A DNA stretch of 64,000 bases from Candidatus Poseidoniaceae archaeon (GTDB lineage: Archaea > Thermoplasmatota > Poseidoniia > Poseidoniales > Poseidoniaceae): assembly GCA_016777125.1 (NCBI GenBank), contig JADHSC010000007.1, positions 4,323 to 68,322 of the forward strand, given 5' to 3'. This document shows positions 37,666 to 57,300 of this stretch, in pieces (the first letter of the stretch is position 1; each line of letters opens with the position of its first letter). The notes under the pieces were generated by a model. It had not been told where the DNA came from. It saw only the letters and a program-made list of their open reading frames with translations, and did no database searches. A program made the translations under genes and the position numbers.

Positions 37666-39687
37666 ATGTCGATGGTCAATGTAACCCTGCCTGACGGAAC
37701 AGTCAACGAATATGCAGCAGGAATTACGGCTGGTGAAGTCGTTATTGATGCTCTAGGAAAGAAGCATGGATGCTTAGCAGCCCGTATTGACGGAGTTGAG
37801 CGTGACTTCTCTGCATCTCTTGATAGCGACTGCAACGTAGAAGGTATCCTCGCCTCCAGTGATGAAGGAATTCATATTCTTCGACACAGTGCTGCCCACT
37901 TGCTTGCTCAAGCGGTCATGGAGATCTATCCTGATGCAAAACCAACCATTGGGCCTGCAATAGATCGTGGATTCTACTATGACTTTGCAATGGAACCGAT
38001 TGCAGTAAGCGACCTTAAGGCCATTGAGAAGAAAATGCATGAACTCGCACGACGGAACATTCAGGTCGAGAGAGTTGAACTTGAAGAACAGGAACTTCGT
38101 GACCATTTCCAATCGAATGAATACAAGATTGAAATTATCGATGACAAGTTGGAAGATGGAGATGGTTCAACCATCTACAAGCAAGGTGAATGGTACGACC
38201 TGTGCCTTGGCCCCCACGTACCGAGCACTGCTAAGTTGATGTTTAGCCGACTCACATCCGTATCCTCTGCCTACTGGAGAGGCGACCAATCTCGTGAACA
38301 ACTAGTTCGAATCTATGGGATTGTTGAGCCCACAAAGGAAGCACTCAAGGCGACTCTGAATCGAATGGAACAAGCCAAACTCCGTGACCATCGTAAACTC
38401 GGAAAGGATTTGCAATTATTCCATGTCGATGAGGAAGTTGGACAAGGACTCATCCTGTGGACGCCAAGAGGAGCCGTTGTTCGTCAAGAGTTACAAGATT
38501 TCATTTCCCATCATCTTCGTCGCCAAGGCTACGATCAAGTGTTTACCCCACATATTGGAAAACTCGATTTGTATCGAACATCTGGCCATTTCCCATATTA
38601 CCAAGAAAGCCAGTATCCGCCACTCATTGAACGCGATTTGATGAAGAAATTGGCTGATGAAGGCTGTTCCTGTTCTGAATTATCGAACATGATGAACAGT
38701 GGTGATATCGACGGATATATGCTCAAACCAATGAACTGTCCTCATCACGTCAAAATCTATGCTTCACAAGCACGTTCATATCGTGATTTACCTTTGAGGC
38801 TCGCTGAATTCGGTACGGTCTATCGATGGGAACAATCCGGTGAGATTTCGGGTATGACTCGTGTTCGAGGATTCACTCAAGATGACGCTCACCTGTTCGT
38901 TACTGAAGACCAAATTGGGGCTGAAGTCATGGGTTGTATTGAATTGGTTCAGACTATTTTTGATGTCCTTGGAATGCATGATTATCGCGTCCGTGTCGGT
39001 CTACGAGACCCGGATTCTGACAAATACGTCGGTGATTCTGAGCGCTGGGATCGAGCGGAAGAAGCATGTCGTGCTGCAGCTGCTAAACTTGGTGTAAATT
39101 GGTCAGAAGAAGAAGGAGAAGCCGCTTTCTACGGTCCTAAAATTGACTTTGTCGTTAAGGACGTTATCGGTCGTGAATGGCAACTTGGAACTGTTCAAGT
39201 TGATTATAATCTTCCAGAACGATTTGACCTTTGGTACAAAGGAAATGATGGGGAAAACCATCGCCCAGTTATGATTCATCGCGCACCATTTGGTTCCATG
39301 GAGCGATTTTGTGGAGTCCTTATCGAACATTTCGCTGGTAAGTTCCCTACATGGCTTTCTCCAACACAAATTCACATTCTTACCATTTCGGAGAAGCACA
39401 AGCAGTATGCCGCAGAGGTTGCTGAAAAGTTACGGGACCAAAATGTTCGTGTGAAAATCGATGATGGTGATGATACCATCGGAAAGAAGATTCGAACACA
39501 TCGCAAGATGCGTCCTGCGTACATGATGATTCTTGGTGATGGTGAAATGAATAACAATTGTGTCTCATTACGCTCAAGAACGGGATCACAAATTTCTGAC
39601 GTTCCACTCGATAAGTTCGTTGATGATATTGTAAAAGAGATTAGCGAAAAGGTTTCACAACCAAGTCTGGTTCCTGATTCTGAGTGA
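37666..39687 (+). CDS. thrS: Threonyl-tRNA synthetase, bacterial type
   Basis: TGS domain (LPDG), HSAAHLLAQA, GFYYD, DLC.GPH, RDHRKLG, KPMNCPHH, TRVRGFTQDDAH, AFYGPKID, HRAPFGS.ERF. Confidence 0.97.
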   Translation: MSMVNVTLPDGTVNEYAAGITAGEVVIDALGKKHGCLAARIDGVERDFSASLDSDCNVEGILASSDEGIHILRHSAAHLLAQAVMEIYPDAKPTIGPAIDRGFYYDFAMEPIAVSDLKAIEKKMHELARRNIQVERVELEEQELRDHFQSNEYKIEIIDDKLEDGDGSTIYKQGEWYDLCLGPHVPSTAKLMFSRLTSVSSAYWRGDQSREQLVRIYGIVEPTKEALKATLNRMEQAKLRDHRKLGKDLQLFHVDEEVGQGLILWTPRGAVVRQELQDFISHHLRRQGYDQVFTPHIGKLDLYRTSGHFPYYQESQYPPLIERDLMKKLADEGCSCSELSNMMNSGDIDGYMLKPMNCPHHVKIYASQARSYRDLPLRLAEFGTVYRWEQSGEISGMTRVRGFTQDDAHLFVTEDQIGAEVMGCIELVQTIFDVLGMHDYRVRVGLRDPDSDKYVGDSERWDRAEEACRAAAAKLGVNWSEEEGEAAFYGPKIDFVVKDVIGREWQLGTVQVDYNLPERFDLWYKGNDGENHRPVMIHRAPFGSMERFCGVLIEHFAGKFPTWLSPTQIHILTISEKHKQYAAEVAEKLRDQNVRVKIDDGDDTIGKKIRTHRKMRPAYMMILGDGEMNNNCVSLRSRTGSQISDVPLDKFVDDIVKEISEKVSQPSLVPDSE

Positions 39688-39752
39688 AAAATCAGTCTCT
39701 GGATACTGCTTTTATTCGCATTCAATTAAAAGCAAAATGTGTTAGGAGAATC

Positions 39753-42314
39753 ATGCCGGCTCCATCTATCATCGGCGGTTTTTCCGTCGTTGCGATTGTG
39801 CCGCTGATTCTAGCAGCAGCAATCGCACTGCTGTTTTGGAGAACGGTTGTCCCTCGTCAATTACGAGGTTTACAAGTTGCTTTTGAAACGGGACCGAAGC
39901 GGTATGAAGTCCATACGATCACTTCCACATTTGGAGAGGCTCGAGACCTTCTGCAAAGCAGAGGGATGCGTTTTGGTGTTGCAACATATCTTTTTGCACT
40001 AACTGGAGCCCTTTTGCTCTTTTTTGAATATCTCATCACTTCACAAGGTTGGAGTGAGGGATACCATGCCCCGAATATCGCTCTTGCTTTGATTCTCATT
40101 GTTTGGCCAGCAATCATCTCTTCTGGCTCTTCTTTGGGAGCACAAATCATCAAGCCGGTTGGTCATGGGCGTGCTCGATTACAAGAAGCGAGTCGTGCTC
40201 GTTCGTATGCCTACGTGGCATTGACTGTCTTTTGGTTCTGTGGCGTAGCTATCTTGTATACGATTCTTGATGCCAGAGGTGTCTCCTCTGATCGTAAACT
40301 GAGTGTGTGCCTACTCCTCGCGTTCTCACCATCCATCATCGCCTATGGACGTGTTTTGGGTACATCCTGGCAAGCATTGCGTCAGTCATCATCTCAGATT
40401 GCGAAAGGAAGAGCCTCACCATTCCACAATCATATTCCGAATGCTCGACAGCAAGTGATTGCACGAATTGTTCATATCAACACAATAGCAATGCCTATTG
40501 TTGCGATCAATACATTGATTTCTCTTGTTGCAATTTTTGTCTCTCCTGAACTATTTACACACTCAGAACGTGTACTTGAACTTCCAGAATATCGGGAACA
40601 GGCCACGATTATGGAAGAAGGCGGCGTGCTTGGTTTCTTCCTTATCGAGTTGTTTTCCAATATTTCAGAACCTGGTCTTCGAGTCCCTCTGGTTTCAGCG
40701 ATTCTGTTATTCCTTCTTCTCAACGTTGCCCTCGTTGGCTTCCTGTTCGTTTATGAAGTAGCACGTATTCTTTTCTTGGATGTTCAAGATGTTTCTGGAA
40801 GAGGTGGCATTCGACTTGCAGACAGCCGATTGCTTCGAGCAGAACGAAGTCAACAAGCAAAAGTCCTGAACTTTTGTTTCACTGGATTCGCTGGCCAATC
40901 CATGCTCTTGTTAGCACTAGCGATGATCACATTCTGGGATTCGAGTTTCCTATCTCAAGGAGATCAATGTGGAGCATGGGAGGACACGTTATGCGCAGTT
41001 GTTACCAAAGATGCCATGGAAGAATTGACCTGGATGCTTGCTGCTGGCGGACAAGTCGGATTCCTCTTCATTTGGCTAACATCCTTACAAGTCGGTTCAA
41101 AGCTCGACGATATTTCCTTTGACGCTTCAATCAGTGAACAAAGAGATATGCTCACGCAGATGGAAGATGTCATTTATCTCAAGCAAAAGCCATTCACTGA
41201 ATTAGTAGCAAAGGATTCTTGGACACGAGCAATCGAGCAATTCGATGATATTCTCAACACGAGTGAAGATTCGATGCAAGGTCTTGATCTGTTGAGAGAA
41301 ACCGGAGCAAGGATGCAACTCTTTGCTGGATTAAATCGATGGGAAGAGGCTGAAGAATACGCAGTCTCTATGCTTGCTCTTCAAGGAGGTCGTGAAGCCC
41401 AAGTTGCCCGTTTGGTATTGGCTGCTGCAAGCATAACCCAGCGAGATCTACCTGAGGCAGCCCCTCGACTGTCCCTCCTCAACAAGAGTGATGTTGAAGC
41501 TGCTCGCTTGCACTGGTTTGCTGCTGTCCTTAATCGAAAGAGAGAGGTCCCTGTAACGTCCCAACCTATTCTGAGTATTGATCCGTTAATGAGACGAAAC
41601 ATCGATTTGTTACGACGTACATCTGTCGGTGAGCCTCGTCCTGCAAAGGCAACTAAGAATTCACCTCCTTACAGAATGATGTTGCTCGGTGACTGTGCAA
41701 GAATGCGTTTAGCAGGTCGTCATGAAGAAGCGATTACAATGCTGGAAGATTTCATGAAGAAATTTGAGAATCATTCAGACTACCCTACTTCATCTTGGTC
41801 TCAAGGGAAGGTGGTTCTTGCACTGATGCACTTGGATTCGAGCCGCCCAAACACTGCTGTTCGTATTGCTCGCGAATTACGTACTACTGAACCTCGGCAT
41901 CCGCATGTTCGTTCTCTGGTCAGAATCCTTCACGAGTTAGGACATATGGATGCAATGGGAAGTGAATCAACTGGTATTACGATGCTGATTGATTCAGGAG
42001 AAGACTGGGTGAAAGATTGGCCACTCGTCCACACTGTTCAAGTCTCACCGAGATTGAGTAGTTCTCGCTCTCTCAAGCATGCTGCAATGGCGAACGTTTG
42101 GATTACACACTCACCCGACCAATCCGTGGCTAAATATTACAACAAGCGATCTGCTTGGAAGCGAATTCCATACAATTCGAATGAGAAGGAAACACCTACA
42201 GGATTGTATCTCCATCTCTATGGAATCATTGCAACAATCGGAGGAATGCCGGTTGATCTTGGTCTTCCAGCAGGACTTGATATTGAAGCCCTTGAGAATA
42301 GAGGCCTTCTTTGA
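39753..42314 (+). CDS. Large polytopic membrane protein with a C-terminal TPR-like helical domain, function unknown
   Basis: About 9-11 TMs then about 400 aa of helical repeats (RWEEAE, RHEEAI..LE, AVRIARELR..EP.HP); SD AGGAGA before the ATG at 39753. Confidence 0.75.
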   Translation: MPAPSIIGGFSVVAIVPLILAAAIALLFWRTVVPRQLRGLQVAFETGPKRYEVHTITSTFGEARDLLQSRGMRFGVATYLFALTGALLLFFEYLITSQGWSEGYHAPNIALALILIVWPAIISSGSSLGAQIIKPVGHGRARLQEASRARSYAYVALTVFWFCGVAILYTILDARGVSSDRKLSVCLLLAFSPSIIAYGRVLGTSWQALRQSSSQIAKGRASPFHNHIPNARQQVIARIVHINTIAMPIVAINTLISLVAIFVSPELFTHSERVLELPEYREQATIMEEGGVLGFFLIELFSNISEPGLRVPLVSAILLFLLLNVALVGFLFVYEVARILFLDVQDVSGRGGIRLADSRLLRAERSQQAKVLNFCFTGFAGQSMLLLALAMITFWDSSFLSQGDQCGAWEDTLCAVVTKDAMEELTWMLAAGGQVGFLFIWLTSLQVGSKLDDISFDASISEQRDMLTQMEDVIYLKQKPFTELVAKDSWTRAIEQFDDILNTSEDSMQGLDLLRETGARMQLFAGLNRWEEAEEYAVSMLALQGGREAQVARLVLAAASITQRDLPEAAPRLSLLNKSDVEAARLHWFAAVLNRKREVPVTSQPILSIDPLMRRNIDLLRRTSVGEPRPAKATKNSPPYRMMLLGDCARMRLAGRHEEAITMLEDFMKKFENHSDYPTSSWSQGKVVLALMHLDSSRPNTAVRIARELRTTEPRHPHVRSLVRILHELGHMDAMGSESTGITMLIDSGEDWVKDWPLVHTVQVSPRLSSSRSLKHAAMANVWITHSPDQSVAKYYNKRSAWKRIPYNSNEKETPTGLYLHLYGIIATIGGMPVDLGLPAGLDIEALENRGLL

Positions 42315-44105
42315 TTAGACACGTCTTCGAAGACGTTCCATCGCTGCATCTGCCTGACCAAGTTGTTCCAATGCATCCGCAACTTGTCCTTCTTCGAGAC
42401 GATCTGCAGCGAGGGCAATCGCTGCATCTGTATTCTTCATGTCCTCATCGGTTGCAGGAAGGTTCGATGCTTCGCATTGATTGCGAAGTACTGCCCATTC
42501 TTCGCGAACGAATGTGAGTAATGTGTTTGCTTCATCTTGTTCATTTCCGAGAGCATCCAGGTCGATTGTTAAACGTTCAAGCAGCGTTGCTGCATGACTC
42601 CATTGACGCTCATCTGCTGCTTTCTGAACAGATGTGAAACGAAGCATCCAGGTATCAGAATCTGAGAAACCTTCGAAACGGGCGAGGAGTTTCTTTCGCT
42701 GACGCAAAGCACGACGGACACTGTCCATTGCTTCTCGTTCAATATTAATGACTCGCATGATACCTTCTCCAAGACCAATGGCTTGTCCAGTATCACCTGC
42801 TTCAAGTGCGGATTCTGCTTGATCCATGCGATGCTCGAGATCTGTCAGATCGAATCCTTCTGCTGCTTTTAGGGCCTTAGCAGCATCTTTCAAGACAACT
42901 TCTGCACGTTCTTTAGCATCACCATCTGCTTGAAGTTGAATCGGTATGACGACAGCGAGTTCGAATGCCTTCTTCGGAGCCTCTCGTTCAAGTTGCTTAC
43001 GAGCATCTCGAATGATTCCTCTCATAGTGTCAATAGCAGCACCGGACTGGCCTGTCAGTAATTCATTTGCATGATTGATAGCCCCTTCTGCTTGAGCCCA
43101 CCAGGTGACGATTTCTTGGGCCCGAATCTTTGCTTGACGGTACAAGGCCTCTGCTTCTCGTAACGAACCAAGCGAGGCTTCTCTTTGACCCATTTCGTAG
43201 GATTTACGTGGGCGCTTAGCAAGTGGTGTGAGGTCTTCAGCATGTTCGATAACCGCTAGAGCCTCTGTGCGAACAACATCGACGTCACCTGCAAGAGAAA
43301 GCGAACGGTCAATGTCTTCATCTGCTTCAGCGAGAAGGCGCATTCCGAAAGCGGGATCAATATGCCCTTCTTCTTTAGCCGTCGTCACCAAACTGCTTGC
43401 TTGGTCCACTGCTGCTCCTTCTGAGCGGAGAATAAGAATTCGATTTTCAAGTCGATCAAGTTCTGTTCTGAAGGCTTTTCTTTCATGACGCAAATTATCT
43501 CCAGCAATCCAGAGATAAGCGACCTGAAGAAGAACAACTGCTGTTAGCAAAGGATGCAGCCAGTCGCTTGGAGATTGAATCCATGTTTCTTCTGCTCGAT
43601 CTCCAACAAGAACACCGAGGACTGTAAGACCGCCAAGTGCAGTCATCATCGCTCGGAATCGCATAACATCGATTCCACCACGAAGTGTCTTAGCAGAACT
43701 TTTCAACATTGCAAAACCAAGACCAAGTAAGAGAATACACGCGAGGATTTCGCTTGGTTCCGTCCCATAGGAGCGTATTGCAAACATCATCAAGAGGGGC
43801 CAAAACATACTGGATGCTGCACCTACACGTGTTCTTGCCTTTGGATCATCGAGAATTAAATCCTGGAGAACAATCCCCCAGAGGATGACAAGTATCGGCA
43901 TTCCCAATCCTGAGAGAAGTTCGGCGTCTCCCGAGAAGGCCTCCTTTAGCGTCGGCCAAGCTAGCCATACGGCTCCAGAGAGACACATTAAGGCACAAAT
44001 CGTACTCAGGCGCTCGATTCGCTGGATACGAAGGAGACGTTCAGCCTTGATAGCTTCCTCAACATCTCCCCAGAGCATAAGTTGACGGACGGGTGTTTTC
44101 GTCAT
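42315..44105 (-). CDS. Membrane protein (about 6 TMs) with a long Ala/Glu-rich helical-repeat C-terminus
   Basis: Hydrophobic N-terminal third, then about 390 aa of helical repeats; start MTKTPV. Confidence 0.75.
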   Translation of the reverse strand: MTKTPVRQLMLWGDVEEAIKAERLLRIQRIERLSTICALMCLSGAVWLAWPTLKEAFSGDAELLSGLGMPILVILWGIVLQDLILDDPKARTRVGAASSMFWPLLMMFAIRSYGTEPSEILACILLLGLGFAMLKSSAKTLRGGIDVMRFRAMMTALGGLTVLGVLVGDRAEETWIQSPSDWLHPLLTAVVLLQVAYLWIAGDNLRHERKAFRTELDRLENRILILRSEGAAVDQASSLVTTAKEEGHIDPAFGMRLLAEADEDIDRSLSLAGDVDVVRTEALAVIEHAEDLTPLAKRPRKSYEMGQREASLGSLREAEALYRQAKIRAQEIVTWWAQAEGAINHANELLTGQSGAAIDTMRGIIRDARKQLEREAPKKAFELAVVIPIQLQADGDAKERAEVVLKDAAKALKAAEGFDLTDLEHRMDQAESALEAGDTGQAIGLGEGIMRVINIEREAMDSVRRALRQRKKLLARFEGFSDSDTWMLRFTSVQKAADERQWSHAATLLERLTIDLDALGNEQDEANTLLTFVREEWAVLRNQCEASNLPATDEDMKNTDAAIALAADRLEEGQVADALEQLGQADAAMERLRRRV

Positions 44106-44185
44106 GAAACCACCGACGATTTGCATCCAAATCTGCAACAATGTTCATGGGTATGCTTGGATGGTTGCGTAGAAGGGGACTTGAA

Positions 44186-46648: not shown

Positions 46649-46684
46649 TCAAAAATCCAATTGGAAATTCAAAAATCCAATTGG
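46649..46684. repeat. Two exact 16-bp direct repeats TCAAAAATCCAATTGG (period 20 bp), each containing the palindrome CCAATTGG
   Basis: Copies at 46649-46664 and 46669-46684, plus a degenerate third copy (TCAAAAAAAAT) at about 46691, in the AT-rich divergent ncsA/Roadblock intergenic region. Confidence 0.85.
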
Positions 46685-46874
46685 TTAATTTCAAAAAAAA
46701 TAGTGAAACAGGGCTTGGCAAAGCGCGGTAAAACAAGCCTTGAATGTTATCCGCGCCCGCTCAAATCTCAAAATGCAGTTGGGATTTTCAAACAGGTCGA
46801 CAAATCCCCCTACGGGGGAATAGTTTCGGGAAAGTTCTTGAATGGTACGCTGTTGTGAAGGGGTTTGAGCAACC

Positions 46875-47216
46875 ATGCTGGACAGTGTTTTTTCTGGTCT
46901 TTGTGAAATCAAAGATGCGCGTCATGTTCGGCTTTTCGACCAGTTCGGAAATGAACTTGCTACGACGAAGCGATGGCCCGAATCTCTTCAAGAACAGCGT
47001 GCTGAGTTGGCTCAGTGTGCTTCAGTTGCCACTTCTTTGGGACTTGGAGAACTTCATGAAGTATGGATCGAATCAAGACGACTTACCGTCATTGACCAGA
47101 TTGATACTGGCGTATTTGCTGCCCTTTCAGGCAAAAACGGTACCAAAGGTATCTGGCGTTATCAACTAGCACGTCAACGACAGCGAATAAACGCAACAAA
47201 AACACAGGTGATTTGA
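46875..47216 (+). CDS. Roadblock/LC7 (MglB-like) small protein
   Basis: 113 aa with helix - beta hairpin (VRLFDQFG) - helix ending SLGLGEL - three strands - helix (GIWRYQL), the Roadblock topology. Confidence 0.6.
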   Translation: MLDSVFSGLCEIKDARHVRLFDQFGNELATTKRWPESLQEQRAELAQCASVATSLGLGELHEVWIESRRLTVIDQIDTGVFAALSGKNGTKGIWRYQLARQRQRINATKTQVI

Positions 47217-50200
47217 TGTTTGATTTACCCCACAGCGAACAAATAGATGAAGAATTAGACGTATCACCAGGTACGATTCAACCGTTTGAAAACGGCTACA
47301 TTACCACCTGGGTTGGTCGAAGAAAAACACCCTATGGCCACAGACTCATTCGAGCAGGACGAGTTATTGGATGGCTTTGCGAGGGAGATAGTGCAACAAA
47401 ACTCCTAGGAGGAGCCGATGCTCGTAAGGCCCTAGAAGCTGCAGAAGAAGGATCTCACAGACTTGTGGGCTATGCTTGTTCACTCAGAGGTCTTGGCTCA
47501 CTAGCCACCCTCATTCCAGAGGCTTTTGAATTCCAAGCAGATGTTCAAGGTCTTTCATCAGGTTCGTCACTAACCGATCGACTCTTCGCTCGAAACATTT
47601 CTGCCGTTCTTTCCACACTTGAAGGATACGACCATGTTCGAGGAGCCCTTGCAGCAGATCAAGGAATTCTCATCGATAGTGCAGGCGATCTTCCAGGCAA
47701 GGCGGAAGAACTTGCTACAAGCATCTCCTCTCTTTCTGATTCGATGGCATCCCATCAATCCACATTAGGTGGAACTGAACAAGGGTATGCTACTCTGAAG
47801 ATGGGAGATGCATCAGTTTTGCTTGCATCGAGTAGCACGATTGTCATTGCAATTTGGACTGAACTCGATACCAATCATGCACGCCTTTTGACAGACCTAA
47901 CCGCTCAACTTGATGGCGAGATTGGAACCTATGCAGAAGGAGCAGCCACACTTCCTGATGGATTCATCCTCAGAGAAGGAAAGGGGGGCTCTGATGCAGT
48001 AATGTCAATGCTAGCTGCCTCGCTTGAAGAACAAGTTACAGGTCATCTCAAAGCAGGTGCAAGCGACAAGGCTGTATCACTTGCAGTCGTCAAAGGAATT
48101 CCTGTGGCAATGGCTGCAAATGGACAATCCTTTGATGATGCTATGATGGGTTTGACCGAAAGTAAGCGTATTTTGAAACTTCACCGCCTTGCTTCAGGAA
48201 CGACTGTTTCTTCTTCGACAGGTGATGTTGAAGCCTTTTCGCTGCAAGGTTTTGTTGAAGCCCTATCCTCTGTACGAACTCGTTCTGAAAAGCGAAAGGA
48301 ATCGATGATGCATCGGCTCATGACCATGTATGGGTTTGAAATTGGGCTTGATCTTGTTCGACAACAACGAAGTAAGGTCTCCATACAAATCGATGGGGCT
48401 GAAGCGAGCAAGGGCTTACCAGCCGCCTCTCCGGTTGCTGGAGTTGATGCTGGATTGAGACGCCGTCTTGAAGAGGCTGAACTTCGCTCAGACTCACTTC
48501 TGCGAACAAATGCGGGCTTAACTACTCAATTACAAGATGCTGAAAAGCAGAGAACTGAGGCGCTTATTCGTCTTGATGAAATAAAGGAATCTTCTGGAGA
48601 TCAATCAGTAACAATTCAATCAAAGAACGATGAACTCAATCGTGTTCAAGTGACCGTTTCAGAATCAAGAACACGAATGGAACAAGCCGAAGAACGAGCA
48701 GATCGTTTAATGCGACGTGTAAGTGAACTTGAGCATCAACTGAGCGAACGTGCTGGTGAACTCGCTAAGGCTCTTGGAAATGCTACAAGCAGTGAAGAAC
48801 TTCGAAATGAATTGGAAGAACTTGCCTCGAATGAAGCTTCTACTCGAGCTGAACTTGAATCAAATGCACAGAAGTTGTCATCAGTCCGTGATCAAATCGA
48901 TACAGAGGAACGACGACTACGTGCCCTTGAGGAGCAAATCACTTCAATGCGAGAACGTCAAGCAACTATGCAAAGTAAATCCAATGTTTCTGAAGAGAAA
49001 GTTCGGGCAGCAGAAGCGAAACTTGACCAAATTGATGCGGAAACCATTGCAAGTCGGAGAAGAGCAGAAGAAGAGCGGAATCGACTTGCTGAAGATGAAG
49101 CTCGAAGAATGCAACTTCATTCTGAAATGCGTGAACTCATGACCGAGAGAAGAGACATCTTGACCGAATTGGGCAACCTAGGTGCTCGTCGAGGGAATGC
49201 AGAAACCGAATTATCTGGTCTTATCAGTCGAGCAGAAGCCCTTACTGAAGCACATGAAGAAGCTGTTTCTGATATTGCTGAAGCAGAACGATTGAGAGCA
49301 CGTCTTTCAGAAGAACCGCTCGCTCAAGCATTGCTCAACGACGATTCAACATTCAGAGGATTAGGCCCAGTCATTGAGCGTCTTGAACAAGCACGAACTC
49401 TTGGATACTCTGTTATCCTTCTCGACCGTGCAGTAGAACGCGCATTACAAGTGGTTCAATCTACAGTCGACCATATTGCTGCAACTCCACGAAATCTCCT
49501 GAGCAGTGAAGTAATGACACTTCTCGAACGACAAGTTCCTCAAACGGCAGGTGCAGTGCGTGGACTTGCTCGATGGTCCGTTCAGCAGCGATTGGAAAAC
49601 CAACTCGGTGAAACTGTAGGCCACCTCATCTTGGATTTGGAAGGTATTCTCGAAGATTATGATCGTTCGATTACAATGCTGAGACGTATGCGAAATGTTC
49701 TCGACCAATTGGGTCAACTCGGAGCGCCTCCAGAAGAAATCGATGCTCTGCGTATGAACTGTATGCGTCCTGAAGCATTACCAAGTGTCGCTGTAGAGAC
49801 GCGACGATTGATTCGTATTGCACTTGATGACATTTATCTTGAAGCCGATCAAAGAGATGCTGGTGAAGCAATTGCTCTTGAACAGACTGCAGGAGTGCTT
49901 GAAGAACTTCTCACGCAAATCGATGCATCTGGGTTGACAAAAGGTGTTCCAAGAGGTTCTATGTGGGATTTCCAACGAGACGGATACCTTCCGTTTGAAA
50001 GAACTGCGATTCCAGTTGGTCAAAGAACACCTGTCATGGACGATATGATTCAACATATTCAGCCTACTTTAGTCCTCGATGAAAGCGTATCACTTGATGC
50101 CGAGCCTGCTCCAGAAGTGATCACTGAAGGTGGATGGGAAGAGATGCCTGCTCCTGTTGATGAAGAAGTGGCAGCGGTTGAGGAAGAACACGTTTCTGAA

Positions 50201-50356
50201 GTACGCCGTCCGGTGGAAGAAGATCGAGTCGATCTTGAAGCAGAATTAGCACGTCTTGATGCTGAGCGGAATGTGCGTGGAGCAAAATCCCCTGAGGTAA
50301 AGGTAGATCCACACCTTGCTGCGCTTGAAAACCAACTTTCAGAGTTGGATTTTTGA
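47213..50356 (+). CDS. Multidomain protein: PATAN/DUF2226-like, Roadblock, PATAN-like, about 290-aa coiled coil, helical domain, acidic tail
   Basis: Heptad-rich E/R/A/L stretch at about 48450-49310; Roadblock-like segment about 47597-47913; no Walker motifs, so not an SMC ATPase. Confidence 0.75.
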   Translation: MMFDLPHSEQIDEELDVSPGTIQPFENGYITTWVGRRKTPYGHRLIRAGRVIGWLCEGDSATKLLGGADARKALEAAEEGSHRLVGYACSLRGLGSLATLIPEAFEFQADVQGLSSGSSLTDRLFARNISAVLSTLEGYDHVRGALAADQGILIDSAGDLPGKAEELATSISSLSDSMASHQSTLGGTEQGYATLKMGDASVLLASSSTIVIAIWTELDTNHARLLTDLTAQLDGEIGTYAEGAATLPDGFILREGKGGSDAVMSMLAASLEEQVTGHLKAGASDKAVSLAVVKGIPVAMAANGQSFDDAMMGLTESKRILKLHRLASGTTVSSSTGDVEAFSLQGFVEALSSVRTRSEKRKESMMHRLMTMYGFEIGLDLVRQQRSKVSIQIDGAEASKGLPAASPVAGVDAGLRRRLEEAELRSDSLLRTNAGLTTQLQDAEKQRTEALIRLDEIKESSGDQSVTIQSKNDELNRVQVTVSESRTRMEQAEERADRLMRRVSELEHQLSERAGELAKALGNATSSEELRNELEELASNEASTRAELESNAQKLSSVRDQIDTEERRLRALEEQITSMRERQATMQSKSNVSEEKVRAAEAKLDQIDAETIASRRRAEEERNRLAEDEARRMQLHSEMRELMTERRDILTELGNLGARRGNAETELSGLISRAEALTEAHEEAVSDIAEAERLRARLSEEPLAQALLNDDSTFRGLGPVIERLEQARTLGYSVILLDRAVERALQVVQSTVDHIAATPRNLLSSEVMTLLERQVPQTAGAVRGLARWSVQQRLENQLGETVGHLILDLEGILEDYDRSITMLRRMRNVLDQLGQLGAPPEEIDALRMNCMRPEALPSVAVETRRLIRIALDDIYLEADQRDAGEAIALEQTAGVLEELLTQIDASGLTKGVPRGSMWDFQRDGYLPFERTAIPVGQRTPVMDDMIQHIQPTLVLDESVSLDAEPAPEVITEGGWEEMPAPVDEEVAAVEEEHVSEVRRPVEEDRVDLEAELARLDAERNVRGAKSPEVKVDPHLAALENQLSELDF

Positions 50357-50365
50357 GGTGATGAA

Positions 50366-50602
50366 ATGACCGATACTCTTCTTGGTAGAAACGAAACAGT
50401 AGGTTCAACATATCCAATGTGGCTTGACCGAGTCATCTTCATTCTTGCAATCGTTGGATTTGTATTTCTCAACCAATACATGTGGGAGGCCATTGGTTCA
50501 ACCTGGCTTCAATGGGTTGCATCGGTTGGATTAGCCATTCTCTTACTCATTATGACGGAAGTAAGTGGAAGAATCATCCAAATGCTTCGAGCAAATGGTT
50601 GA
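50366..50602 (+). CDS. Small two-TM membrane protein
   Basis: 78 aa, SD GAGGTGA, 9 nt after the coiled-coil gene. Confidence 0.75.
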   Translation: MTDTLLGRNETVGSTYPMWLDRVIFILAIVGFVFLNQYMWEAIGSTWLQWVASVGLAILLLIMTEVSGRIIQMLRANG

Positions 50603-51805
50603 TTAGAATTTCTTTTCTTCGACTGGAGCCTCTGTCTTATTTCCAAGAGACTCGATCAAGCCCCAGACTCTCTCCCAAGGGATGAAGAAACGCATCACTG
50701 CAATTAGGCTAAGGAAGAGAAGCGCAGAGATGACCAATCCATAGGTCAGCGACAATTCGATAGATTCTGAAACTTGAGCAGCCCATTGGCTACCCGTGGA
50801 TGAACTTACTACCTCCAAGAGAACACTATGGAACCCAAGAGCGATCATCGTCATTAGTCCAGTTATCGTCAGGAATCCTGCTGTGTGACGTAAATGACCG
50901 TTGAGAACATTGTCCATTTGTTTGACATATTCTGGGTCTCTCTTGCAAGATTCAGGCAATCTGTAAGCGTATTCGAGATAACGGATGACACCGAAACCTG
51001 ATTCTTGGAATACCATGATTAAAACAGCAATGAGAATCAATGAGAGTTGCTCGGGTGTTACCAAATCAAATCCAAATATGCCTATCGTCGGATCGCTGAC
51101 TTGTGTTTCAAGCGTTTTCAGATTCGCTCCCCAATCACCTAACTGACTCTTAATCAGTGGGAACGTAAGGATTGCGTGTATACCAAGGAAGAGGAGAGTA
51201 AACCCGATTGCCCAACCAATTGAACGTCTTGATAGCCCCCAAATACCACGTGTACCCATAATCACAGGCAAGAGATAGACAAAGAGAATGACAAGAGAGA
51301 GAATCATCAAGAGAGGCCATTCAAGTGTCTTGAGTTCACCCTCGGAAGGAGCTCTGAAATCAAGTGAGAAAATCATTGAAGGGACCCAAGTCAAGAGGAG
51401 ACGACCGACAAGAGAGACCATGAGCAAAATGATGAAACCAAGTTTGATTCTTTGCTGTAGTTTTGGTGATTGGAATGCCATTAATGCCATTGAACCACCG
51501 AGAAGGAGTCCCAGAATAATTGGGACATAGAATCGAGCAAGTCCTTGTCTGCCTTCTCCAGTAATCCAGTCCCCAATCGGAACTTCTCCGACAAGAGATT
51601 CCAGCGTTTCAAAAACCATTGTGTGGTCAATACTGTTGACAACATAGGTTGAAACGACCTCAAGATACATCCAAACAAGAGCAATTGTTGCTACAACTTG
51701 TAGCGTGATAATTTGCCACTGCTTCCTCAGCATCTTCAGATGAAGGGTACGTGGCCGTCCGCCAAGAAGGGAAACATCACTCTGAGGATCAACTTCACCT
51801 GCCAT
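50603..51805 (-). CDS. Polytopic membrane protein, function unknown
   Basis: 400 aa, about 9-10 TMs, abuts the DUF58 gene. Confidence 0.75.
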   Translation of the reverse strand: MAGEVDPQSDVSLLGGRPRTLHLKMLRKQWQIITLQVVATIALVWMYLEVVSTYVVNSIDHTMVFETLESLVGEVPIGDWITGEGRQGLARFYVPIILGLLLGGSMALMAFQSPKLQQRIKLGFIILLMVSLVGRLLLTWVPSMIFSLDFRAPSEGELKTLEWPLLMILSLVILFVYLLPVIMGTRGIWGLSRRSIGWAIGFTLLFLGIHAILTFPLIKSQLGDWGANLKTLETQVSDPTIGIFGFDLVTPEQLSLILIAVLIMVFQESGFGVIRYLEYAYRLPESCKRDPEYVKQMDNVLNGHLRHTAGFLTITGLMTMIALGFHSVLLEVVSSSTGSQWAAQVSESIELSLTYGLVISALLFLSLIAVMRFFIPWERVWGLIESLGNKTEAPVEEKKF

Positions 51806-53059
51806 CTAGAATCCCCTCACTTGCAGAATAGCCTGAGACAAATCCATGTCCGGCATCCAATCAATAACTTGTGCCCCTGAACCCGCAAGAGTTGTCAAAC
51901 GGTTTTGGCGTTCAAGTTTGAGGACTTCATAGGACATACGAGGAATACGAGAAACAAGACGCTCGAAATCAATACTCGAAGGCGATAATACAGTGACTTC
52001 GTGACCTCGTCCAACAAGGTCTCGAACTGCGGCAGGGACTGTACCGTCACCTTCACATGATGAGATGATGAAGACTGGGCTGCCTCGACTGAATCTACCG
52101 CTCAATGAATTGGTGACTGCTTGCAAGGGCATACTTCCTTCTGGTTTTACTCCAGCAAGTGAACTGAGGATTTTGAAATACTGCTTATCGCCAGTATCTG
52201 GAGGAAGATAGGACAAACCATCTCCATAGATGCTTAGAGCAACGCTATCACGTCGCTTTAGGAAGAATGCTGCAAGGCTAGCTGCACTTACTGTACCCAT
52301 TTCGAGTGGATTCTTCAGAACAGTTCCAATTCGTGAAACATCTCTCGAGTCGAGAAGAATATAGAGATCAGTAACTGCATCTCGACACTTTTCGTTAACC
52401 ATCAGATCACCTGTTCGAGCAAATGCTTTCCAATTGATGTTCTTGAACGGGTCTCCGGGGACGTATTCTCTTAAGGAATAGAATTCAGACCCTTGCCCTG
52501 GTGTTCTCAGAGTGGTTGCTCCAGTGTACATCTTTGGCGTACGTGAACGAAGGAATGCTTCCTCTACTTCCTTGATTTGAGGGAAGATGACGATATCAGA
52601 ATGGTGATCAACATACATATCTTCTACGCCCAGATTGAACGTGTTGCGAACACGGAGAGATACTGGTCCCAGAGAGTAGTGTCCGCGAAGCGGGCATCGA
52701 AGGACGTAACGGATTCGTGCACTTTCACCTGGTTTGAGGTTGAGGCGCATCTGATTGAGTCCGCTTCGAAGTTTCATCTCGTGAGGGATGTTATCGTACA
52801 CATCGAGAAGTTGAGTACGTCGATTGCTACGATTAGTGACGAGTAGTTCGACATACAGATCATCTCCTTTGTACAAGTTATCTGCTGAAAGAGTACGCTG
52901 TACCTCGATATCACCATGACCGGATACCCATGAATTCACGACGATGAAAGTGATGAGAGCAAGACCAAGAATCATCATTTGATTATTGGTAATCATCATC
53001 CCAATGAGGATGAGTGCAATACCTCCAGTGAAGGTGAATGCTGCTTTACGTGTCCACAT
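51806..53059 (-). CDS. DUF58 (vWA-like) family protein
   Basis: N-terminal TMs, Ig-like part (RGHYSLGP), G.GSEFYSLREYVPGD..KNINWKA.AR, ILLD; SD AGGTGAG before the ATG at 53059. Confidence 0.88.
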   Translation of the reverse strand: MWTRKAAFTFTGGIALILIGMMITNNQMMILGLALITFIVVNSWVSGHGDIEVQRTLSADNLYKGDDLYVELLVTNRSNRRTQLLDVYDNIPHEMKLRSGLNQMRLNLKPGESARIRYVLRCPLRGHYSLGPVSLRVRNTFNLGVEDMYVDHHSDIVIFPQIKEVEEAFLRSRTPKMYTGATTLRTPGQGSEFYSLREYVPGDPFKNINWKAFARTGDLMVNEKCRDAVTDLYILLDSRDVSRIGTVLKNPLEMGTVSAASLAAFFLKRRDSVALSIYGDGLSYLPPDTGDKQYFKILSSLAGVKPEGSMPLQAVTNSLSGRFSRGSPVFIISSCEGDGTVPAAVRDLVGRGHEVTVLSPSSIDFERLVSRIPRMSYEVLKLERQNRLTTLAGSGAQVIDWMPDMDLSQAILQVRGF

Positions 53060-53064
53060 TGTGC

Positions 53065-54681
53065 TCACCTACGCCCCCAAGCTTTGATTCGCTTCACGAG
53101 TGCAACAGATTGCTCAAGAGAGTATTTTCCTGGTTCTATGGCAAATTTAGCGAGAACTGGATCTTCGATTAAACCCACCAATTCTTTGGCAGACATAGCG
53201 TGGAATTCGTCTCTTGTTAGCCCATTTTGATTACGAACCTTAGAGAGGAATACCTGCCGTATTTTCTCAGTTTTCGCATAATAGGTGTATCTGTTTGCAT
53301 CTCCAAATCCGTAGTAAATGATACTGAAAATATGGCGCCATGGTTCTGGGTCTCGCTTCTTGAGAAGTACACCTTCGAAGGTGATGAAGAGAACAACAAA
53401 CAGAGCGAGCATTGCAAGCCCTTCTCCAGTAAAGTAGACCAAAAGGAAGTACACTGTGTTGTAGGAATCCGCTAAGAGGGCGTTTTGAGGGTGACGACTT
53501 TCATCAAAGATAACCATTGCATTCTCAGCAGGTTGTCCTGTCTCTCCATCTTTTGTACTCATCAACGATTCAGAAATGACATCAAGCGCCCACTTTCTGT
53601 TATCGTTAGCAGGCATATCTTTGCTTTGTTCCCCGTATTTCCCCTCATTGAATCCTTCGTAGTCGTAAATAGCATTGATTAGTGAACTACCATCTGCGAT
53701 GAAGAAGACTCTGCCTCCTTCATCTGGATCACAACTCGATGAAGCACAGGCTTCGATTGAGAGATTGAATTGACCCGACAGGTCGGGTGTTTCGCTTGTT
53801 TGTTCGTTACCAATCCAAAGATATCCATCACCATTGACGTCAACAGTTGCTTGATTACTGGTAACTGCTCGAACGTTTACATCATTGAGAGCGCCCTTTA
53901 CACCAGGTACAATTTCAAGTCCTGTCACGTTGTTGAGGAGCATTGTATAGGTAGCGTTGTATTCGATTCGGCCAAGTTCTCCTGAACTCTTAACCCAATG
54001 GTGGGAGCAGAGACCTGCTTCTTTGAGAGTCATCGATTCACCATCAAGTTCACTGCATGGATGTGGGCCAGTGACATCAGACCAACGCTCGTGTTGATCG
54101 ATTGTTGTTGGATCAAGTGTTGTCCCATTCATCCCACAAGGACTTGCTTGCATGCACATCCAGATGTAATTATAATCCAACTCTGCCACATAATTTGTGT
54201 CTTGCAGTTGGTATCCAGAGTAACGTACCCCGTATGCCTCTCCGATACTTCCTGCATAACCAAAGTCTTCCAAGACGATAACAGTCCCACCATTGTCGAC
54301 GAATTCGACGATTGCATCAACTTCTGAAGGTGAGTAACCATCTTCTGTAGCTATCGTAATGAAACCATCTTCATCGAACTGCGGAAAAGAAAGCGTATCC
54401 CTTTCTACTCCTGCAACAACAAATGTTGTATTTCGAGGATCTTCAATGTCAGCCAACAACAGAGGGCTGCTTACAAGTGATCGTGTTTCGACGCCCATAT
54501 CGTTGATGTCTTCACGGAAGGCAGACATGTCATTCCAGTCGTCATCGTATGCAGACAGTTGTTCTGACTGACTGATATTGATAAAATTCTGAAGAACGGT
54601 GAGAAGAAGGATGCCGAGAACAGCCCAGAATGCAACCTGAAGCCCGATTCGGTTCAGATTCCTTGCTCGTTCCGCCGCCAT
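53065..54681 (-). CDS. DUF4350/GldG-like extracellular domain membrane protein
   Basis: N-terminal TM, S.Y...WND.S.FR, EVDAIVEFVDNGGTVIVLEDFG, GRVFFIADGS..IN, N..W, VIFDESRH, second TM. Confidence 0.7.
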   Translation of the reverse strand: MAAERARNLNRIGLQVAFWAVLGILLLTVLQNFINISQSEQLSAYDDDWNDMSAFREDINDMGVETRSLVSSPLLLADIEDPRNTTFVVAGVERDTLSFPQFDEDGFITIATEDGYSPSEVDAIVEFVDNGGTVIVLEDFGYAGSIGEAYGVRYSGYQLQDTNYVAELDYNYIWMCMQASPCGMNGTTLDPTTIDQHERWSDVTGPHPCSELDGESMTLKEAGLCSHHWVKSSGELGRIEYNATYTMLLNNVTGLEIVPGVKGALNDVNVRAVTSNQATVDVNGDGYLWIGNEQTSETPDLSGQFNLSIEACASSSCDPDEGGRVFFIADGSSLINAIYDYEGFNEGKYGEQSKDMPANDNRKWALDVISESLMSTKDGETGQPAENAMVIFDESRHPQNALLADSYNTVYFLLVYFTGEGLAMLALFVVLFITFEGVLLKKRDPEPWRHIFSIIYYGFGDANRYTYYAKTEKIRQVFLSKVRNQNGLTRDEFHAMSAKELVGLIEDPVLAKFAIEPGKYSLEQSVALVKRIKAWGRR

Positions 54682-54778
54682 TTCACTCACCTGCTAGAAC
54701 ACCGTTCAGACAAAGACGGGCTCACATCGGTTTAGAAGGTTGTCCAATCGTGTTGGCAAAATGCTCATCCATGCATCA

Positions 54779-55074: not shown

Positions 55075-57300
55075 TCACATTGTTTCCATACCGAAACCGT
55101 AATCACGAGTTCGCTTGATGTTGGAAAGTCCTGATGTCAATCGAGTTTCCATCTTTTGATAGTACTCAAGCATCTCAGGAGTAACTGTAGGACGGACTCG
55201 TGTGACTGCATCGTCGAAATGCTTCTTAGAGACTTTCTTCTTTCCAGCACGCATTGCAATGAGGGCTGCTTCACGGCACACTGCTTCAATGTCTGCTCCA
55301 GTAAATCCTTCCATGCTCGAGAGAATATCCTTGAAAGAGAATTTGGATAATGGCATTCCCTCCGAGTGAATCAGGAAAATGGCTTCTCTGGCTGGAGCAT
55401 CTGGAGGAGGGACGTGGAGAACACGTTCAAATCGACCGCTTCGCAAGAGTGCGGGATCAATCATCTCAGGTCTGTTTGTTGCAGCTACGACGATAACGCC
55501 GTCAAGTGATTCGACACCATCCATGCTGGCAAGCAATTGGTTGACAACTCTGTTTCCAACATCACTGCCTTCACCATTGGATGAACTTCTCATGCTTGCT
55601 ATCGATTCAAATTCATCAAGGAAGATAATCGAAGGCGATGATTGCTTTGCCTTCTTGAAGATTTCACGAATTCCTCGTTCTGATTCCCCAACCCACTTCG
55701 AAATCATCTCCGGACCTTTTATCGAGATGAAATTCGCTTGAGCTTCGTTGGCGATTGCCTTGGCAAGGAGCGTTTTTCCAGTACCTGGAGCACCGAACAA
55801 AACAATTCCTCGAGGTGGCTTAATGTTGAAATGTTCAAAGATTTCGGGCTTCGTTAGTGGCCATTCGACAGATTCCTTCAGTCGATCTTTGACTTCTTCA
55901 AGGCCACCTACTTCATCCCATTCAATTGCGGGAATCTCGACGTAAATTTCTCGGAGTGCAGATGGTTCAACTTCTTTGATTGCATATCGGAAGTCATCCA
56001 TTCGCACTTCCATCTTTTCAAGAACTTCTGGAGGTATTGTTTCTTCTTCCAAGTCAATCTCTGGAAGGTATCTGCGGAGAGATTTCATTGCTGCCTCTCG
56101 AACGAGTGCTGCAAGATCTGCACCAACGAAACCGTAGGTGTTGTCGAGAACCCAATTGATTTCAAAATCATCTGCTATCGGCATTTGACGTGTGTGCACG
56201 TCCATGATTTCTTGACGTCCTTCACGGTCTGGAACACCAATTTCGATTTCTCGGTCGAATCTGCCAGGTCGGCGGAGAGCAGGGTCGAGCGCATCTCTTC
56301 GGTTGGTTGCTCCGATGACAACAACATTGTCACGGCCTTGCATTCCATCCATCAATGTGAGCATTTGAGCGACAACACGTCGTTCAACTTCACCACTGAC
56401 ATCTTCACGCTTAGGACAAATCGAATCAATTTCATCAATGAAGATGATTGCAGGCGAGTTTTCGCTTGCTTCGTCAAAGATTTCTCGAAGTTGTTTTTCT
56501 GATTCTCCGTAATACTTGGAGATGATTTCTGGGCCGTTGATGGATTTGAAGTGAGCGTTCACTTCTGTAGCAACAGCCTTTGCAATCATCGTTTTTCCAG
56601 TTCCTGGAGGACCGTGAAGTAAAACGCCCTTAGGAGCATCAATTCCGAGTCTTCGGAACAACTCAGGATGTTTAAGAGGAAGTTCAATCATTTCACGAAC
56701 CTTTTGCAATTGTTGACCAATTCCACCAACATCCTCGTACGTGATACCTTCCGATTGACCAACGTCTTCGTCGTCGATGGCTTCATCTTTGATGATGATA
56801 TCAGTATCACTGGTTACTTTCACAATTCCTTTTGGAGTGGTTTGAACGACTGCGAAAGGCAAGGCTTCTGCGAACAACGTCATACCCGGAATGAAAATTC
56901 TGTCTCCTGCCATTACTGGGCGCTTTGAGAGACCTCTGCGAGCGAATCCTTCAATCCCGGGCCCGAATTTTACTTTCTGCTTGTTCGCCATGACAGGAGA
57001 AAGTGTGAGTTTTGTGCATTCTTTCGCTTCTGCTTTGATGACGTCGACTCGGTCCCCTAGGCTTACACCTGCGTTCTTTCTGATAATTCCATCAATCCGA
57101 ACAATGTCCATTTTAGCATCTTCAGGGCGGCTTCGCCAGTAGATTGCAGCAGTCGAACGCTTTTCACCACGAATTTCGACAATGTCACCTGGTTTGAGGT
57201 CGAGACCATGGTCTCCTGAAATTCGTGCTCTTCCGTGTCCTACATCGGATGGAATTGCCTTTGCTACTCTCAATGAAACTCCGTCATCATCGCCGCTCAT
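55075..57300 (-). CDS. cdc48: Cdc48/VAT AAA+ ATPase
   Basis: N-domain plus two AAA modules: GPPGTGKT / FIDEIDSI / [11 protein letters not shown] and GAPGTGKT / FLDEFES / LLRSGRFE. Confidence 0.97.

Follow-up and report, generated by a model that had tools for sequence, protein, structure and literature searches.

We report on three adjacent open reading frames (ORFs), g1, g2 and g3, all located on the forward (+) strand of a 64,000-nucleotide (nt) stretch of contig JADHSC010000007.1 from a Candidatus Poseidoniaceae archaeon (assembly GCA_016777125.1); the whole stretch is referred to as "the window", and all coordinates are those of the window. Our tentative reading, to which we assign a probability of about 45%, is that the three genes constitute an operon for a membrane-associated coiled-coil scaffold which is specific to Poseidoniales and built on a Roadblock platform. 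The central gene, g2, encodes a protein of 1047 amino acids (aa) with the domain order D1, Roadblock domain, D3, neck and linker, rod, C-terminal domain (C-domain), acidic linker and tail peptide; it is preceded by a separate Roadblock gene (g1) and followed by a gene for a small membrane protein (g3). While the Roadblock platform domain itself is known, the architecture of g2, together with a separate Roadblock gene and a gene for a protein with two transmembrane segments, is new, being undescribed in the literature that we have searched. A preliminary description, made from the DNA letters alone, had placed three coupled genes here, and all three are present (g1 at 46875-47216, g2 at 47213-50356 and g3 at 50366-50602). 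The features of the three proteins are located as follows.

46875 to 47216, + strand: g1, a stand-alone 113-aa Roadblock/LC7 protein that has the C-terminal helix of the long form.
47213 to 47548, + strand: domain D1 of g2 (residues 1-112), compact and beta-rich with two helices, AlphaFold2 (AF2) pLDDT 85-92.
47585 to 47914, + strand: Roadblock/LC7 domain of g2 (residues 125-234), from AF2, Foldseek and Pfam matches in homologues.
47960 to 48277, + strand: domain D3 of g2 (residues 250-355), alpha/beta, with the order b-a-bbb-a-b-a in AF2.
48287 to 48457, + strand: neck helix of g2 (residues 359-386), then a flexible linker of variable length (residues 387-415, pLDDT <50).
48458 to 49312, + strand: coiled-coil rod of g2 (residues 416-700, 285 aa), from heptads, proline and glycine content and AF2.
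48698 to 48787, + strand: conserved island of the rod (residues 496-525), RRVSELEHQL.ERA.ELAKALG.
49313 to 50017, + strand: helical C-domain of g2 (residues 701-935), all-helical in AF2, pLDDT mostly 80-90.
50018 to 50356, + strand: acidic disordered linker of g2 (residues 936-1000), then two short conserved helices and the stop codon, from composition and AF2.
50366 to 50602, + strand: g3, 78 aa, with two transmembrane segments.

The Roadblock domain of g2 is identified mainly by its predicted structure. The AF2 model of residues 1-415, which has been built on 15 diverse homologues and has a mean pLDDT of 78, contains between D1 and D3 a domain with the order a-bb-a-bbb-a, at the segment that the preliminary description had already read as Roadblock-like. 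The comparison of this model with the Protein Data Bank (PDB) by Foldseek has given 89 matches at E<=0.001, and the best 50 of these 89 are all Roadblock, MglB or LAMTOR chains (E ~1e-5, target TM-score 0.6-0.8, ~110 aligned columns); the matches include the Asgard structures 7yh1, 9jue and 7f8m, MglB of Myxococcus xanthus and LAMTOR/MP1-p14. At the level of sequence, the Pfam family Robl_LC7 is matched by five of the 15 homologous N-terminal regions (best E=2e-4), the window copy being unmatched; matches at residues 132-215 and 151-215 reach 19.9 and 13.8 bits, under the gathering score of 23. One homologue (P0132) is labelled 'Roadblock/LC7/MglB family' by JGI.

The small protein encoded by g1, which had likewise been described as a stand-alone Roadblock protein, is supported in this role by its relatives: PF03259 is matched by 13 of 24 diverse orthologues, with a best E of 3e-5, and the profile that is built from these 24 has Roadblock proteins as three of its top five PDB matches, i.e. 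7f8m, 7ct3 (MglC) and 7yh1, which are aligned end to end at E 0.14-0.55. Residues P35, E62, W64, E66, G86, W94 and R95 are invariant in g1. When g1 is compared with the Roadblock domain of g2 by hhalign, the two are aligned in register with P=0.003, and both have the C-terminal helix of what PMC10933270 calls the long form. Shallow profile-profile comparisons, with an effective number of sequences (Neff) of ~2, were uninformative, and the deeper ones supported only this pair, g1 and the Roadblock domain of g2. When the window copies of g1 and g2 are scanned directly with Pfam and NCBIfam, neither a Roadblock nor a PATAN match is returned.

The two domains that flank the Roadblock domain, D1 and D3, are genuine and confidently modelled by AF2, and it is here that our findings depart from the preliminary description, which had taken D1 (opening with LPHS) and D3 (opening with LPDG) to be related to each other and to the PATAN or DUF2226 families. 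The profile-profile comparison of D1 with D3, using alignments of 77 sequences, gives P=0.11 over 15 residues, and the relationship between them has not been upheld. Similarly, PF14332, the PATAN family, is unmatched at E up to 10 in every test, covering 15 N-terminal regions, 14 isolated D1 segments and 14 isolated D3 segments; we know of no solved PATAN structure for comparison. Searches of PDB sequences with D1 alone and with D3 alone have found no match, and both D1 and D3 are left without an assigned family. One of the 14 D1 segments, from the most distant member (P0068), matches PF09987/DUF2226 with E=0.096 and 12.6 bits, under the cutoff of 22, its residues 22-78 being aligned with positions 30-83 of 252; judged by sequence, this match is negligible alone, but it may be a lead, as the family is one of the two that had been named in advance, among 24,736 models. 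The search of a viral fold library gave only weak longin matches. Two proteins (P0120 and P0123) that were considered as remote relatives with repeated D3-like units have been rejected, since they are YadA and immunoglobulin (Ig) repeat adhesins and the matches are therefore spurious, and a match to VMAP-C (vWA-MoxR associated), in two of 15 members with E=0.12, is not significant.

The junctions between the three genes are those expected of a single transcription unit. The longest ORF of g2 begins at TTG and overlaps g1 by 4 nt, in agreement with the overlap first described; the start of g2 is almost certainly the ATG at 47216, because every homologue opens with MF.LP, and when counted from this ATG the overlap is a 1-nt stop/start overlap (TGATG), with the Shine-Dalgarno-like AGGTGAT preceding g2 at this junction. 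The ATG of g3 is located 9 nt past the stop codon of g2, the gap being as previously given, and 4 nt past the Shine-Dalgarno-like GAGGTGAT. The stop/start overlap, the short gap and the Shine-Dalgarno-like motifs together form the signature of genes that are internal to an operon. The locus is also covered by marine metatranscriptome assemblies of Logan, in which both the g1/g2 and the g2/g3 junctions are found within single contigs (contig X7 covers 46722-47595, and contig X8 covers 47079-47437 and 50018-50725). Proteins of the g1, g2 and g3 types are publicly annotated as hypothetical, and no description of the module, or of DUF2226, has been found in the literature that was searched.

In order to establish the distribution of g2, we have compared a profile of its N-terminal region with 1.84 billion representative proteins, clustered at 50% identity, by HMMER. 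The family consists of 77 clusters, about a dozen of which are full-length (1020-1089 aa), and no genuine relatives outside the family are found among the 1.84 billion proteins. A g2 relative is encoded by 156 species representatives of GTDB; the best 80 of the 156 are labelled Poseidoniales, Poseidoniaceae or unclassified archaea, including the closed Marine Group II (MG-II) chromosome CM001443, with one exception, and the operon appears to be restricted to Poseidoniales. The exception (NZEQ01000033.1, labelled 'Verrucomicrobiales bacterium isolate ARS100', our locus L059) has the full region of the Poseidoniales type, with PyrBI, TtuA, g2, g3 and DUF58, and is most likely a mis-binned archaeal contig. 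The full-length architecture of g2 is conserved down to 32% identity, and at this level of divergence g1 and g3 are still linked to g2. An ORF of the size of g1 abuts g2 in 71 of the 72 testable species, the exception (L076) being a frameshifted g1 in a long-read assembly, and an ORF of the size of g3 follows g2 in 74 of 75; the conservation of the three genes together, which had been named beforehand as a check of the module, is observed. Frameshifts in the pilon-polished long-read assemblies L001 and L076 split g2, PyrB, an ArsP-like gene (L001) and g1 (L076). The short 'stand-alone' proteins with only the N-terminal region of g2 (e.g. the 354-aa P0044) represent no separate architecture but are artefacts of assembly or of contig ends.

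Within the operon, g1 and g3 evolve much faster than the neighbouring genes (27-45% versus 60-92% identity) and have kept their positions. At one locus, from a distant relative (L083), a gene for an FG-GAP protein has been inserted after g2, and a clear homologue of g3 is still located downstream; the inserted gene (11182-12856 of L083, also seen in L084) overlaps the stop codon of g2, and its product of 448 aa consists of FG-GAP repeats and has hydrophobic segments at its ends. We have also analysed the residuals of divergence that are left after the species signal, taken from five flanking genes, is removed: the residual divergence of g1 correlates with every domain of g2 except D3 (r=0.38-0.64), versus -0.30 to 0.37 for the neighbours.

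The stretch of heptads, previously estimated at about 290 aa, is confirmed as a rod of ~285 aa with strong heptad periodicity and almost without proline or glycine. We have aligned 75 full-length members of the family, 26 of which are non-redundant at <80% identity, the most distant being 32% identical to the window copy: residues 410-884 contain zero indels in the 75 sequences, and the indels of the neck and linker region are confined to residues 389-409. The sequence of the rod is only 30-41% identical despite its invariant length; because the rod is free of indels while its sequence drifts, its length is under strict selection. Conservation is found at the island of residues 496-525, which holds a helix-break-like motif, G-(D/N)-A-x-S, near residue 522, and at the C-terminal end of the rod (residues 636-700), which is a single helix in AF2. 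An indel-free rod fits a spacer or ruler, in-register lateral packing in the style of intermediate filaments, or a folded-back arm equally. The rod also matches SMC/Rad50 arm models of Pfam and NCBIfam at ~30 bits, versus cutoffs of 567-1087, a similarity that, as far as sequence can tell, is generic and typical of any coiled coil; a search of g2 for the Walker A motif of an ATPase head of the SMC/Rad50 type has found none.

The rod is followed by the best-conserved part of g2, the C-domain, which is 74% identical where the whole of g2 is ~50% identical, and 56% identical in the most distant members. The AF2 model of the C-terminal 412 residues (pLDDT 77) is all-helical, with the helix of the rod entering a bundle of long helices at ~701-935. 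No relative of the C-domain has been found by Foldseek against the PDB (best E=0.8, TM-score at most ~0.28) and nothing consistent by Pfam. The acidic linker that follows is 32-94 aa long across the family, with pLDDT <50, and leads to two conserved tail helices, the first with the motif DLEAELARLD and the second with (D/E)LE..L.(D/E)(L/I)(D/E) and a hydrophobic C-terminal residue; the helical domain, the acidic tail and the conserved C-terminal peptide of the preliminary description are all recovered by AF2, by composition and by our catalogue of tails. An acidic, flexible linker that is tipped by a short conserved peptide commonly recruits partners, as in the tails of SSB and FtsZ, to which we liken the tail of g2 by way of analogy only.

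The third gene, g3, contains the two hydrophobic segments of the 2-transmembrane peptide that had been described. Its conserved motifs, YP(L/M)W.(E/D)(R/K) before the first transmembrane segment and E..GR..Q after the second, border the segments on the positively charged side, and both ends of g3 are probably cytoplasmic. g3 is an orphan family, with no consistent Pfam match among 20 members; a match to DUF6684, which is given by the window copy only (one of the 20 members), has been taken as chance. The gene of a 400-aa multi-pass membrane protein (50603-51805, - strand) converges with g3, with no base between the two stop codons (50600-50605); as there is no room for a terminator, the convergent transcripts overlap or end within the opposite gene.

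Dimers of Roadblock and longin domains act as platforms, in most cases, though not in all, for GTPases (PMC10933270; PMC4316618). Since Roadblock domains work as dimeric platforms, we infer that g1 pairs or stacks with the Roadblock domain of g2, as in the dimers of MglB, LAMTOR and Rag, which would place a platform at one end of the rod. The rod would dimerise and hold its two ends at a fixed distance of ~40 nm (285 residues x ~0.15 nm), and this fixed length would set a defined spacing or packing register. The platform would then recruit or regulate a partner, which might be an NTPase with its gene elsewhere or else a ligand other than a GTPase; at the other end of the rod, the C-domain and the tail peptide might serve as the docking site of another partner, for which g3 at the membrane is a possibility.

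Several observations weigh against the scaffold that we propose. A parallel dimer of g2 could form a Roadblock homodimer without g1. The co-variation of g1 is with g2 as a whole and not with the Roadblock domain specifically, and g3 shows no rate co-variation with g2. The g3 gene is missing at one locus (L082), and at another (L087) a hidden Markov model (HMM) search of the ORFs finds g2 with neither g1 nor g3 at its position. The metatranscriptome contigs are strandless and may contain DNA. In addition, the whole region is collinear, and the adjacency of g1, g2 and g3 alone is therefore weak evidence for a module: the ~20 kb region runs in the same order, even at 32% g2 identity, from PyrB-PyrI-TtuA to the 400-aa membrane protein, DUF58, DUF4350, PRC and CDC48. 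At L087 (a Logan contig with 69% guanine plus cytosine), PyrB-PyrI-TtuA-g2 is kept, a gene for an Fe-S protein is located after g2, and the C-terminal peptide of g2 is altered and extended (...ELEAELAEIEQELARLGY). The collinearity, the absence of g3 or of both g1 and g3 at these loci and the missing rate co-variation of g3 speak for an account in which g3 above all, and possibly g1, would merely adjoin g2 because the order of the genes is fixed, with synteny but no shared function; we consider this a decidedly improbable account, as it meets the overlapping stop and start codons and Shine-Dalgarno-like motifs, which indicate translational coupling, the retention of g3 downstream of an inserted gene, the co-variation of g1 with g2 beyond the species signal, and the presence in both g1 and g2 of a platform domain that is known to work as a dimer.

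The other explanations accept the three genes as a unit and differ in what the rod or the platform would do. If g2 were a subunit of a cytoskeletal filament or lattice, similar to intermediate filaments, its rods would be packed laterally in a staggered manner, and both the Roadblock head and g1 would be accessories. The rods of intermediate filaments have a fixed length and conserved ends, owing to the register of their assembly; g2 has the corresponding layout, i.e. a heptad rod in the middle, conserved in length and flanked by a head and a tail, with a conserved island and a conserved rod end, and a 'faint' match to the crescentin-rod family of Pfam is recorded for one homologue. We think a filament of this kind unlikely, since polymerisation would be read from the layout, a ruler or spacer would account equally for a fixed length, the crescentin match is faint, and the most conserved part of g2 is the globular C-domain rather than the rod ends alone; the conserved globular head and C-domain are, moreover, unlike those of typical intermediate filaments. 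The same strict length and the helix-break motif within the island may be explained by an antiparallel coiled coil that folds back near residue 522, in the manner of an SMC/Rad50 arm without its ATPase, bringing the head beside the C-domain. The generic arm similarity agrees with such a fold, which we regard as very improbable: the matches are far under the cutoffs (~32 bits versus 567-1087), g2 is without a Walker A motif, the arms around residue 522 would be unequal (~105 aa versus 173 aa), and a conserved helix would need the disordered linker of variable length (387-415) as its partner.

The platform, in turn, might serve as an MglB-like regulator of a distantly encoded Ras-like GTPase, acting as a GAP (GTPase-activating protein), as a GEF (guanine nucleotide exchange factor) or as a Ragulator-style anchor, in polarity or in the positioning of pili or the archaellum. 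MglB, LAMTOR and the Asgard Roadblock proteins are the closest structural matches, and Roadblock dimers commonly bind small GTPases (PMC4316618; PMC10933270). According to the literature, mglB-like genes are usually located beside their GTPase gene, and in some cases next to PATAN genes (PMC4316618); the motor of the pilus is a binding partner of PATAN domains (bioRxiv 2021.06.11.447907), and Roadblock genes often occur in archaeal type IV pilus loci (PMC4858521). None of these three contexts is present at g1-g3. As had been stated from the start, the window has no GTPase gene, i.e. no ORF of the 64 kb combines Walker A and NKxD motifs, and its P-loop ORFs are restricted to an ATPase of the Mrp/NUBPL type, CDC48 and three further proteins (447-508 aa); no small GTPase is found among the listed called genes of the related ~20 kb loci. 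The cognate Ras-like GTPase gene that is usually adjacent in MglB-type systems is thus found neither in the window nor among these called genes, and a partner may be encoded elsewhere in the genome. Genes for pili, archaella or division are likewise not found in the window, and some Roadblock and longin proteins work without GTPases (PMC10933270), so that we consider the regulator quite unlikely. Nothing in the window links g1-g3 to pili, division or polarity; a polarity or cytoskeletal role of the operon, as the preliminary description had suggested, is unproven, and the function of the scaffold is one that we infer.

The neighbouring genes of the operon are of the housekeeping type (ThrRS, DnaK, the thermosome, SdhA, an aldehyde dehydrogenase, PyrBI and TtuA). 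Directly downstream, on the - strand (50603-54690), there is a conserved cluster of the 400-aa membrane protein, which has no Pfam match, a DUF58 protein and a DUF4350 protein, and the order as a whole keeps this cluster collinear with g1-g3; a MoxR ATPase has not been found adjacent to it. A functional link between g2 and these divergent genes has been considered and is unsupported, the VMAP-C match being insignificant. A PRC-barrel gene precedes CDC48 in the related loci, and CDC48 is located at 55075-57300 in the window. Three large ORFs of the window have no significant Pfam match: 16771-19821 (- strand, 1016 aa), 39684-42314 (+ strand, 876 aa) and 42315-44141 (- strand, 608 aa). In the last of these, the 608-aa protein, hydrophobic segments at the N-terminus are combined with a C-terminal part that is long, helical and charged; the position of this protein is conserved in many related genomes (44-98% identical), and it moves with PyrBI where the block is inverted.

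The region upstream of g1 (46723-46877) is more conserved than the g1 protein itself, and contains the following elements.

46723 to 46874, + strand: conserved, probable leader or promoter region before g1, from motif conservation in related loci.
46723 to 46756: inverted repeat GCGCGGTAAAAC...TTATCCGCGC with a variable loop, in the window's own clade.
46776 to 46782: CAGTTGG, upstream of g1.
46806 to 46818: clade-limited hairpin CCCCCTACGGGGG, upstream of g1.
46831 to 46842: AAAGTTCTTGAA, upstream of g1.
About 10 nt before the ATG of g1: TTGAG.

Across 45 diverse Poseidoniaceae loci, CAGTTGG, AAAGTTCTTGAA and TTGAG are invariant or nearly so. A structured RNA has been considered for this region and rejected: there is no Rfam match, no tRNA and no RNAalifold consensus structure, and the clade-limited hairpin pairs in only ~45% of cells, no better than slid controls. 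The conserved linear motifs are probably promoter, operator or leader signals. Further upstream, in the intergenic region between the divergent TtuA and g1 genes, a perfect 16-nt direct repeat, TCAAAAATCCAATTGG, occurs in two copies that are 4 nt apart (46649-46684), and CAATTG-like cores recur in the same intergenic region of other clades; the repeat may be a transcription-factor site.

In the surface ocean, the Poseidoniales (Marine Group II) rank with the most abundant archaea; no member has ever been brought into culture, and the cell biology of the order is essentially unexplored. The operon, which can be cloned, is a concrete candidate for an element that would serve structure or positioning in these cells; it couples an ancient platform, the Roadblock domain that is found from MglB to Ragulator, to a rod that keeps its length while its sequence drifts to ~30% identity, and it includes, in the C-domain of g2, a conserved domain of 235 residues without a recognisable relative. 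If the Roadblock pair does work without a GTPase, a prokaryotic example would be added to the GTPase-independent uses of the platform. A bolder proposal, which we place on the unlikely side, is that g1-g3 are an element of Poseidoniales cell architecture, i.e. a ruler or filament subunit of ~40 nm, anchored by g3, with a GTPase-free Roadblock platform at one end and a C-domain of new fold that would dock a core machine.

Of the systems already described, the MglB and MglC proteins of Myxococcus xanthus and Thermus share with the operon the Roadblock/LC7 fold with a C-terminal helix, and the g2 domain matches MglB chains with E ~1e-5, target TM-score 0.7-0.76 and 20% identity. MglB, however, is a single-domain homodimer, is encoded next to mglA and is the GAP of the MglA polarity switch, whereas here one Roadblock domain forms part of a coiled-coil protein of 1047 aa, the other has a small gene of its own, and no gene for a GTPase is located nearby. 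The Asgard Roadblock proteins (7yh1, 9jue and 7f8m; PMC10933270), which are of the long form, are the best matches, in structure and in sequence, of g1 as well as of the g2 domain; they occur as stand-alone homodimers or GTPase fusions, and none of them has the arrangement of D1, Roadblock, D3, rod and C-domain. PATAN proteins (DUF4388, PF14332; e.g. PatA and PixE) are related to this comparison through the PATAN genes that neighbour mglB-like genes (PMC4316618), and through the helix, three strands, helix and strand of D3, which the preliminary description had seen as PATAN-like; D1 and D3 differ from them in leaving PF14332 unmatched, in having no alpha-clip insertion in the AF2 model, and in having no REC domain or pilus genes nearby. 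Crescentin, FilP and Scy resemble g2 in their head-rod-tail layout with a long heptad rod, which in g2 has a fixed length and conserved segments, but they are without Roadblock heads, and their sequence homology to g2 is only that of a generic coiled coil. A further parallel to the scaffold that we propose is the Ragulator/LAMTOR complex of the lysosome (MP1-p14, LAMTOR2/3 and LAMTOR4/5), the chains of which are matched structurally by g2: Ragulator is eukaryotic, is anchored through LAMTOR1, a lipidated protein, and has Rag GTPases as its ligands, whereas the tether of g1-g3 would be a coiled coil with a two-transmembrane protein, and the heterodimer is deduced only; by analogy, the proposed logic of a Roadblock pair, an extended tether and a membrane anchor would be that of Ragulator, in which Roadblock heterodimers serve as a membrane-tethered scaffold.

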